This document shows positions 13,125-13,758 of a DNA stretch of 27,343 nucleotides, piece by piece; the first letter of the stretch is position 1; each line of letters begins with the position of its first letter. The notes under the pieces were generated by a model. The model did no database searches and had not been told where the DNA came from. It saw nothing but the letters and a program-made list of their open reading frames with translations. The position numbers and the translations under genes were made by a program. This DNA is from a virus (taxonomy: Duplodnaviria > Heunggongvirae > Uroviricota > Caudoviricetes). The DNA is taken from IMG/VR virus record IMGVR_UViG_2695420565_000003. One strand, written 5' to 3'.

Positions 13125-13598
13125 ATGTCTCAGCAATTTAAAGATATTTTTACTGGTGGTCTGGTAAGTATGTTCTATCACGCCGATACCACTAACACCG
13201 ATCTTGCACATGAAAGCTATGAAGAAATTAAAGAGTGTGCTGGTTTTCCTGAAACTGGTATCGAGCGCGGCACTGTAGAAGTTAAATCCTTCTCTTCTCA
13301 GTATAACCGTAAGCTGGTAGGTAAACTGAACGTTCCTGATCTGACTCTGACCGTTAACTACATTCCTGGTGATGCGGTACACGAGAAGCTCATTAAAGCT
13401 GCCGAAGACGGTACTCGAATTCAGATTAAGATTGAATACTATGTAGATGCAGCAAAACAGACTGGTATTCGCACCGCTTTCAACGGCTTCATCTCTAAAG
13501 TTGCTATGAACGGTGGCGATGAAGAAGTGGTAACGAAAGAGTTTACCTTTGCTGTTGATGGTGCTCCGCTGAAACAGCAAATCTTCACTGCCGGATGA
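13125..13598 (+). CDS. Putative major tail tube protein (157 aa)
   Basis: Small protein directly upstream of the chaperone/tape-measure genes and followed by a strong terminator (high-expression signature). The C-terminal pattern 'RIQIKIEYY...FNGFISKVAMNGG...TKEFTFAVDGAP' resembles lambda V / TP901-1-type tube proteins. TGA stop. Confidence 0.55.
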   Translation: MSQQFKDIFTGGLVSMFYHADTTNTDLAHESYEEIKECAGFPETGIERGTVEVKSFSSQYNRKLVGKLNVPDLTLTVNYIPGDAVHEKLIKAAEDGTRIQIKIEYYVDAAKQTGIRTAFNGFISKVAMNGGDEEVVTKEFTFAVDGAPLKQQIFTAG

Positions 13599-13724
13599 AC
13601 TAACGAAGAACTTCCTTTACCAGAACCGGAACCACTGCCGGAACATGAAGCGGTGGTGATTCCAGAAGTAGAAGAAGTTACGGCGAAAGCCACAGCAAAA
13701 CGAGGCCGCAAGGCTAAGAATTAA
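13599..13724 (+). other. In-frame 41-codon extension after the tail tube TGA (candidate read-through peptide), ending in TAA
   Basis: 'TNEELPLPEPEPLPEHEAVVIPEVEEVTAKATAKRGRKAKN' is paralogous to the capsid extension. Both share the DNA core TGAACTAACG and GGCGAAAGCCACAGC. Confidence 0.4.
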
Positions 13725-13730
13725 TTTTAA

Positions 13731-13758
13731 GCCCTGCCTTAATGGTGGGGCTTTTTTA
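13731..13758 (+). terminator. Rho-independent terminator after the tail tube gene and its extension
   Basis: GCCCTGCC-TTAAT-GGTGGGGC followed by TTTTTTATT. Confidence 0.7.

Follow-up and report, generated by a model that had tools for sequence, protein, structure and literature searches.

Does translation of a phage structural gene end where its reading frame first closes? The question is raised by a 27,343-nucleotide stretch of tailed-phage DNA (IMG/VR record IMGVR_UViG_2695420565_000003, Caudoviricetes; the whole of it is hereafter called the window). In it, a tail tube protein gene of 157 amino acids (aa) ends at a TGA that is followed by 41 in-frame codons, a TAA and a transcription terminator. 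The original prediction had described this arrangement, together with the context TGAACTAACG around the stop that the tube gene shares with the capsid gene, and all of these details hold. In our reading, which we consider likely, the unit (hereafter the cassette) is a site of programmed UGA read-through that would yield minor, C-terminally extended tube and capsid subunits with an acidic, Pro-rich spacer and a Lys/Arg tip. The tube gene and the parts of its cassette are as follows.

13125..13598, plus strand: tail tube protein gene, 157 aa and TGA, lambda gpV N-domain type
13596..13599, plus strand: UGA-A leaky stop tetranucleotide, the proposed read-through site, invariant in all cassette copies
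13599..13608, plus strand: 10-nt spacer ACTAACGAAG between stop and stem-loop, constant in length and variable in sequence
13599..13724, plus strand: extension open reading frame (ORF) by in-frame translation, 41 codons (13599-13721) and TAA at 13722-13724
13609..13679, plus strand: extended imperfect stem-loop, basal helix AACUUC.CUUUA / UAGAA.GAAGUU
13682..13691, plus strand: mini-hairpin GGCGAAAGCC (3-bp stem, GAAA tetraloop), 2 nt past the stem-loop, 100% paired
13729..13759, plus strand: intrinsic terminator AAGCCCTGCC-TTAAT-GGTGGGGCTT with T-run, 4 nt past the TAA, by folding and likeness to the capsid copy

The stop codon of the tube gene lies at 13596-13598, and translation past it in the same frame gives the 41 residues TNEELPLPEPEPLPEHEAVVIPEVEEVTAKATAKRGRKAKN, which are laid out as an acidic, Pro-rich spacer, the motif VTAKATAK and the basic tip RGRKAKN; the mini-hairpin codes for part of the invariant AKA motif. 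The extension had pLDDT values below 50 in AlphaFold2 (AF2) modelling and is predicted to be disordered. The terminator stem (13729-13753) has 10 pairs, six of them G-C, followed by TTTTTT (-17 kcal/mol, z = -3.6), which corresponds to the GC-rich stem-loop and U-run by which an intrinsic terminator is recognised in sequence.

UGA is the leakiest stop codon in E. coli and is mostly read as Trp (PMC11126739), and misreading by tRNA-Trp in this organism is strongest where an A comes after the UGA (Engelberg-Kulka 1981, as cited in PMC5289835); on these grounds we propose that a minor part of the ribosomes reads through. Most ribosomes would stop at the UGA and release the 157-aa tube protein, while a small fraction would insert an amino acid at UGA-A, most likely Trp via tRNA-Trp, and translate the 41 further codons to the strong TAA. 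The A at position +4 would favour the leak, and so, probably, would the stem-loop, whose base, 10 nt downstream, should lie near the mRNA entry channel when the UGA is in the A site. The predicted junctions read QQIFTAG-W-TNEELPLPEPEPLPEHEAVVIPEVEEVTAK in the tube protein and VLQIGE-W-TNVEPSEPSPDLGEENLIPEPEEESQTVK in the capsid protein. A minority of tube and capsid subunits would thus carry a disordered, acidic, Pro-rich spacer of ~40 aa ending in a Lys/Arg-rich tip, and the terminator would end or attenuate the transcript just past the extended ORF. With an assumed read-through share of 1-5%, taken from general values, a handful of tails would be expected per head and per tail tube.

The same unit, with a homologous extension and, as originally predicted, a terminator nearly identical to that of the tube gene, was found after the capsid gene, where 42 open codons are followed by TAATAA and a terminator.

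5630..7639, plus strand: prohead protease-scaffold-major capsid fusion gene, 669 aa and TGA (PF04586 Peptidase_S78, PF05065 Phage_capsid, phrog_617)
7637..7771, plus strand: first cassette copy, UGA-A to TAATAA, by translation and folding (z = -3.4)
7637-7640, plus strand: UGA-A of the capsid cassette
7640-7649, plus strand: spacer of the capsid cassette
7640-7765, plus strand: extension of the capsid cassette, 42 codons
7650-7723, plus strand: stem-loop of the capsid cassette
7726-7735, plus strand: mini-hairpin of the capsid cassette
7766-7771, plus strand: TAATAA of the capsid cassette
7774..7801, plus strand: intrinsic terminator after the capsid cassette, 9 pairs at 7774-7795, then TTTTTG (z = -3.7)

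The capsid gene TGA at 7637 stands in the same context TGAACTAACG as that of the tube gene, although this 10-mer does not occur beyond chance (3 matches at ≤1 mismatch vs 2.2 expected). From stop codon through T-run, the two sites can be aligned with 78% column identity, and their flanks outside that span do not align, so that a unit of ~165 nt is present twice. The two terminators are nearly identical, and a 15-nt block, GGCGAAAGCCACAGC, is nearly invariant in nucleotides between these paralogous copies. Among the 25 plus-strand genes of the window, 22 end at TAA, and TGA-A followed by a long open frame (41-42 codons) in otherwise intergenic DNA was found only after the capsid and tube genes. 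The TAA stops of the window are often doubled (TAATAA) or have a second stop nearby.

Conservation was assessed over ~85 cassette copies, which came from metagenomes, prophages of E. coli and a single prophage of Providencia. The sets examined for the stop comprised 26 copies on tube genes, 34 on capsid genes, 56 from an IMG/VR pattern scan, 21 metagenomic ones and the Providencia copy. Every copy has TGA followed by A, a conserved stop context of the leaky type; the codon before the stop varies (GGA, GGT, TCT, GCT), as does the codon after it (ACT, AAT). Frame 0 of the extension, the frame that read-through would require to be kept open, is free of stops in all copies, and the +1 and +2 frames hold 1-7 stops. 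None of the minus-strand frames is consistently open throughout the tube-gene copies, and a minus-strand gene as the cause of the frame conservation was thereby rejected. Extensions of 25, 28, 33, 36, 39, 40, 41, 42, 43, 44 and 45 codons were seen; all differences are whole codons, and this range points to at least nine independent indels. All 24 IMG/VR loci with tube proteins 83-100% identical to that of the window have TGA-A and an open extension of 36, 39 or 41 codons, and all 29 capsid loci have TGA-A with extensions of 28 or 42-45 codons. The scan with a conserved-core pattern (56 IMG/VR and 21 metagenome copies) returned only sites after a capsid or tube gene of this family, all with TGA-A and in frame, and added variants of 33 and 40 codons; tube-gene copies overall have 36, 39, 40 or 41 codons and capsid relatives 28, 33, 42, 43, 44 or 45. 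The Providencia prophage carries a capsid cassette with TGA-A, an identical spacer and a 25-codon extension, TNEELPEEEPLPVATEKSTKRRKSK.

The same comparison bears on the idea that a nonsense mutation once severed a C-terminal domain, of which the extension would be the decaying remnant. Many tube proteins of the same PHROG are longer, and more distant relatives have directly encoded short tails, as such a history would predict; the same TGA, open frame and motif nevertheless recur in ~85 copies, which span two genes and two genera, vary in length by in-frame steps and show no decay. The original prediction would have been undermined by an extension that is not conserved in relatives, but all tube proteins of at least 83% identity have kept the extension, and the capsid copy reaches Providencia. 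On this comparative sequence evidence the remnant reading is largely refuted, and we regard it as very improbable.

A further possibility is that the region acts as an untranslated 3' RNA element (stem-loop, GNRA hairpin and terminator), i.e. as an mRNA stabiliser, an RNase III site, a small RNA from the 3' untranslated region or a modulator of termination, and that the open frame is incidental. The structure is indeed conserved at least as well as the peptide, with compensatory changes, z values down to -5.7 and the GGCGAAAGCCACAGC block, and terminators after major capsid and tail genes are a common way of setting transcript abundance. However, the indels in the extension are all multiples of three, whereas length differences of 1-2 nt occur in the loop of the terminator, a few bases downstream; frame 0 alone lacks stops; and the stop is always TGA-A in a genome that prefers TAA. 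In one tail type, GRPP is kept by synonymous changes (GGA CGT CCA CCG vs GGT CGC CCG CCG). The terminator is placed after the second stop, and directly after the stop in relatives that lack the extension. In addition, an Rfam search of the cassette with E up to 10 gave no family match at the gathering threshold, the sub-threshold matches being driven by the terminator only. An RNA-only role is, in our judgement, quite unlikely.

The RNA downstream of the stop was found to be structured in a fixed register. In 38 of 38 unique extension RNAs, and also in Providencia, the stem-loop starts exactly 10 nt past the UGA, the distance staying constant while the spacer sequence varies; a 3' structure at a fixed short distance is a feature of many, but not all, read-through sites. 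In all 38 variants the stem-loop ends 2 nt before the GGCGAAAGCC mini-hairpin (z from -1 to -5.7), and the minimum free energy fold of the tube extension has z = -4.2, or -2.3 with flanks. At least five designs of the basal helix occupy the same register, including AACC.UCUG / CAGA.GGUU, AACUUC / GAAGUU, AAUUGCCGG / CCGGUAGUU and AACAACC / GGUUGUU, and in Providencia AGUUGCCGGAAG / CUUCCGGUAGCU. Covariation was examined in a condensed gapless alignment of 21 variants over 14 pairs, 11 in the basal helix and three in the mini-hairpin. Pairing in register reached 85%, vs 25-48% when the partner strand was slid; both sides had changed in 8 of the 14 pairs (7 of the 11 basal ones), and the covariation score was 0.33 vs 0.15 in shuffles, none of 500 of which reached 0.33. 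The mini-hairpin is 100% paired in all variants, including a GGU...GCC wobble variant and a compensatory GGA...UCC variant in Providencia, where compensatory changes occur in both helices. The conserved stem-loop 10 nt past the UGA and the GNRA mini-hairpin are a new finding of this analysis.

A hairpin behind a UGA also calls to mind selenocysteine insertion through a SECIS-like element, and the minimal SECIS of E. coli fdhF has a similar spacing of ~10-11 nt past its UGA. The apical loops, however, differ fully among the variants (GAUUU, CGGAACAUGAA, GAAA, AAGAACCG), so that a common SelB-binding loop is lacking, and no SECIS or other Rfam family was matched at E up to 10. The related idea that the UGA is a sense codon, by a phage suppressor tRNA or an alternative code, meets the absence of any tRNA gene in the window and in the complete 35-kb prophage copy, and all other genes of the window are intact under the standard code; two ARAGORN matches in relatives lie antisense within coding genes and are not suppressors. 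Together, selenocysteine, suppression and recoded genomes have a practically negligible probability in our estimate. One database entry does show a residue at the stop: in P0002, a tube protein of 198 aa from the ENA contig L059 that was called with genetic code 4, W stands in place of the TGA. Since L059 has TGA at this position and P0002 is not its table-11 translation, an alternative code on the strength of this entry was rejected. No natural sense-codon variant of the stop was found among the ~85 copies (IMG/VR, metagenomes, ENA and NCBI).

Frameshifting and hopping were considered as well. In the capsid copy, the +1 and -1 frames both stop within 13 nt; of the two frames in the tube copy, -1 is closed within 9 nt, and +1 stays open over ~20 codons without reaching the conserved tail. 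Different codons precede the stop in different copies, and a conserved pair of take-off and landing codons is lacking. There is also no in-frame start codon between the UGA and the first indel, and frameshifting, hopping and local initiation are unlikely on these grounds.

The main alternative to read-through is that the extension ORF, or its C-terminal half, is a separate, unfused basic peptide of ~20-40 aa made by termination-reinitiation or coupled internal initiation. It is kept in this place because the homologous ORF of Edwardsiella (L065:3780-3860) and Proteus (L120:5560-5640) sits in another frame: there the capsid gene ends G-TGA-TA, and its stop overlaps a GTG (GTGATA) from which the basic-peptide ORF runs in the +2 frame, reading (M)IPTGREEVSVKSGRKPKTDN and (M)ISQAVGSEVSVKKAKKAKAE. 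The hairpin of these two genera includes the stop/start itself, a classic layout of translational coupling, and their GTG ATA CCA aligns with a GTG ATT CCA inside the tube-gene extension of the window. From sequence, this layout suggests a free 21-aa peptide produced by reinitiation, or else a -1 shift that has gone unrecognised. Moreover, nr contains a gene call of 33 aa from within the capsid extension (P0039, a "hypothetical protein" whose start is an internal TTG). In E. coli and Providencia, however, no start codon lies at or near the UGA, and the candidate internal starts (GTG, CTG, TTG) differ among variants, lack a Shine-Dalgarno sequence and lie inside the stem-loop. Indels upstream of these candidates are still whole codons, and a separate peptide leaves the invariant TGA-A, in place of TAA, unexplained. 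Directly fused basic tails also exist: the capsid protein of Salmonella (L063:4120-4160) ends in a directly encoded ...QKVEASKAK followed by TAA, and short basic tails are encoded directly on the tube proteins of Salmonella, Providencia, Edwardsiella and Proteus (GLRK, SARK, AAKEK, VKEK). In Hafniaceae (L121:5650-5700), a TAA is followed by the five codons AKSKD and a second TAA. Overall, a separate peptide appears unlikely to us.

Returning to programmed read-through, several points besides the Edwardsiella and Proteus layout weigh against it. The copies stem from few lineages, and their counts overstate the number of independent events. The extension evolves fast in amino acids; its variable sites are spread over all three codon positions without third-position bias and its variants are mosaic, and much of it may be shaped by RNA constraints for this reason. 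The tube-gene copy is dispensable in nature: E. coli relatives with tube proteins 57-74% identical lack the tube extension, have TAA or TAATAA directly before the terminator and keep the capsid cassette. RefSeq leaves the regions after both stops unannotated, the only database "proteins" over them are the code-4 miscall P0002 and the 33-aa call P0039, and no report of an extended product turned up in the literature searches. To our knowledge, structure-stimulated read-through has not been described on bacterial ribosomes.

The same relatives inform the history of the unit. As they retain the capsid cassette without a tube extension, we conclude from sequence comparison that the capsid cassette is the older one and the tube cassette a lineage-specific duplicate. 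The association of an extension with TGA-A, and of no extension with TAA, held in every case examined in E. coli, Providencia, Salmonella and Hafnia, the capsid genes of Edwardsiella and Proteus being the exception. The original prediction saw a shared cassette of recoding plus terminator. Its recoding part is supported by the invariant TGA-A, the open frame 0, the whole-codon indels and the TAA where no extension follows, but the terminator does not seem to be an obligate part: one relative (L127:7848-8050) has a 40-codon tube extension ending ...RGRKTK and, after it, the terminator GCCATCCTTCGGGGTGGC, a type otherwise found in extension-less lineages, so that the extension and the GCCCTGCC terminator are separable. 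A search with a 10-variant profile of the extension against 5.8 billion proteins found no fused domain elsewhere, only the 33-aa mis-called ORF of the same cassette. A broader reading, put forward tentatively and with some doubt, is that of a portable cassette (UGA-A, 10-nt spacer, stem-loop, GNRA hairpin, disordered basic-tipped peptide, strong stop and terminator) whose RNA stimulates read-through by bacterial ribosomes and which was copied as a unit from the capsid to the tube gene. Related genera would reach the same peptide in other ways, by direct fusion or by frameshifting or reinitiation at GUGA.

The nature of the 157-aa protein was left between tube and capsid decoration protein by the original prediction; the comparison settles it as a tail tube protein of the lambda gpV type. 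It matched the PHROGs family phrog_158, "major tail protein", with E = 6e-21 (positions 20-157 of a 376-position profile), and scored 28.2 bits with Pfam PF16460, just below the cut-off of 28.4. In the AF2 model, built with 35 homologues, the beta-sandwich core is confident and a long loop is of low confidence. Its top Foldseek matches in the Protein Data Bank (PDB) were the YDC107 tail core and the lambda gpV tube, followed by the NF5 tube and Hcp, all at probability 1.0. Tube proteins are expected to have a beta-sandwich with a long beta2-beta3 loop; the model and the gene order, upstream of a chaperone-like gene at 14325 and the tape measure gene at 15020, agree with this identity, as does the RefSeq label "phage tail tube protein". 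A second protein of the window (8537-9370, 277 aa) matches phrog_158 at residues 10-154 and resembles tail fibre proteins in its C-terminal part; it may be a tube-like adaptor anchoring a side fibre.

In gpV the tube domain comprises residues 1-156, and the Ig-like domain at the C-terminus protrudes outward (PMC8718954). The 157-aa protein ends where the gpV N-domain ends (residue 156-157), and the tube tail would project from the position of that outward-facing domain. The original prediction had speculated that the basic tail contacts DNA or another partner. Contact with DNA was not substantiated, as an outward orientation is expected for the tube C-terminus and the Pro of an AT-hook core is missing from KRGRKAKN; neither this tail nor the capsid tail KKQRKTKE contains GRP, and alleles with KKVGRPPKAK or KRGRKPKE show a resemblance to AT-hooks only. 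The C-termini of T7 gp10B and encapsulins are likewise outward-facing. With gpV, T7 gp10B and encapsulins as models, outward-facing C-termini are to be expected, and the most plausible role of the Lys/Arg tip is then a weak electrostatic attachment to polyanionic surfaces or partners, and not contact with packaged DNA; this is the weakest part of our interpretation.

The window derives from a ~35-kb prophage inserted in hicB next to ydcR by a serine recombinase and present in 22 of 5426 complete E. coli genomes; those of E. coli PI7 (NZ_CP074033) and 24AR0357 (NZ_CP195351) have 99.7% identity to the region. In E. coli 24AR0357 (L069:1-40681), hicB is split next to ydcR, a large serine recombinase is encoded, and structural genes make up ~24 of ~35 kb; the portal gene is split in two, and few replication or regulatory genes are evident. 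No close cultured relative was found in INPHARED, the best match being Escherichia phage DCP80 (43-45% identity), which has no cassette. Upstream of the tube gene, a 1204-aa tail fibre (9453-13067) has a 3' kilobase with 75-82% DNA identity to gp37 of RB49-like T-even phages (Krischvirus), and a gp38-like adhesin gene (13773-14279; PF21721) is parted from it by the tube gene and cassette. In Edwardsiella, gp38 directly follows the fibre gene, and L127 lacks gp38 altogether. This varying fibre/gp38 arrangement and the Krischvirus-like fibre end point to a recombination hotspot around the tube gene. The chaperone-like gene (102 aa) and a 124-aa ORF occupy 14325-15016 before the tape measure gene. 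As listed, two head-tail connector-like ORFs (7831-8121 and 8057-8527) have 65 nt in common; the start of the second is probably downstream of its listed ATG, relatives having 140 aa vs the 156 aa listed.

If the proposal is correct, programmed UGA read-through joins the repertoire of double-stranded DNA (dsDNA) tailed phages, whose known recoding for C-terminal appendages is frameshifting, textbook read-through being confined to the RNA phage Q-beta. It would add a compact module of 165 nt by which a function of low-copy display passes from gene to gene. A stimulatory role of the RNA, if real, would make this programmed read-through signal the first in a bacterial system to be assisted by structure, with head and tail sharing one low-copy appendage, and a counterpart, amenable to E. 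coli genetics, of the 3' stem-loop stimulators of eukaryotic viruses. In practice, the cassette flags gene ends that annotation pipelines miss or mis-call, such as the code-4 call and the 33-aa ORF, and offers a natural template for mosaic phage display.

Q-beta is a single-stranded RNA phage whose read-through extension is a folded domain of ~195 aa that is needed for infectivity and affects one gene. We know of no fixed-spacer 3' stem-loop required for its read-through. At the end of its coat gene a leaky UGA is misread, classically by tRNA-Trp, to give the minor extended coat subunit A1 in virions (cited in PMC3159437 and PMC5289835). The cassette is similar in placing a UGA at the end of a major coat gene and in predicting a minor, C-terminally extended subunit, but it belongs to a dsDNA temperate siphophage, encodes a disordered 41-aa peptide and occurs on two genes. 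In the Listeria phages PSA, A118 and A500, both the major capsid (cps) and the major tail (tsh) genes are recoded to longer products, by +1 or -1 frameshifting at proline codons or slippery sites (PMC5009743). Here too, both capsid and tail genes have a C-terminally longer second product, in our case a predicted one, but the extension lies in frame 0 and the alternative frames close or miss the conserved tail, so that among these two mechanisms only read-through fits.

The 3' read-through signals of alphaviruses and plant viruses combine a basal stem of 10-12 bp, a spacer of 8-12 nt and a variable loop and raise read-through up to 10-fold (PMC3159437). The signals of alphaviruses, tobraviruses, furoviruses and others match the cassette in layout, the UGA being followed after 8-12 nt by a basal stem of ~10-12 bp in which one nucleotide is often irregular (Firth et al. 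2011, PMC3159437), and in both the interior folds but is not conserved and compensatory substitutions lend support. The viral signals work in a context of +4 C or CGG/CUA and on the ribosomes of eukaryotes, whereas the cassette would act on bacterial ribosomes with a +4 A, has a second, GNRA mini-hairpin and has a putative stimulatory role only.

Engineered mosaic display on lambda gpV/gpD or T7 gp10B uses a suppressible stop or a frameshift to set a low display ratio on head and tail. Such systems are artificial and need suppressor strains; the cassette likewise puts a stop between a structural protein and a C-terminal peptide. Natural appendages such as those of SPP1 gp17.1/gp17.1*, T3/T7 gp10A/10B and the gpV Ig-like domain face outward and are often substoichiometric and often dispensable (PMC8718954, PMC5009743). 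The SPP1, T7 and lambda appendages are folded Ig-like or FN3 domains that are frameshifted or directly encoded, in contrast to the short, disordered, charged peptide predicted to arise here by read-through. In the literature covered by our searches, no tailed dsDNA phage is described as having UGA-A read-through that is paired with a conserved 3' structure and duplicated as a cassette on two structural genes. Recoding of capsid and tail genes (by frameshifting, in Listeria phages), read-through at a coat gene (Q-beta) and stem-loop-assisted read-through (eukaryotic viruses) are each known separately; it is their combination in one cassette that these searches did not find.

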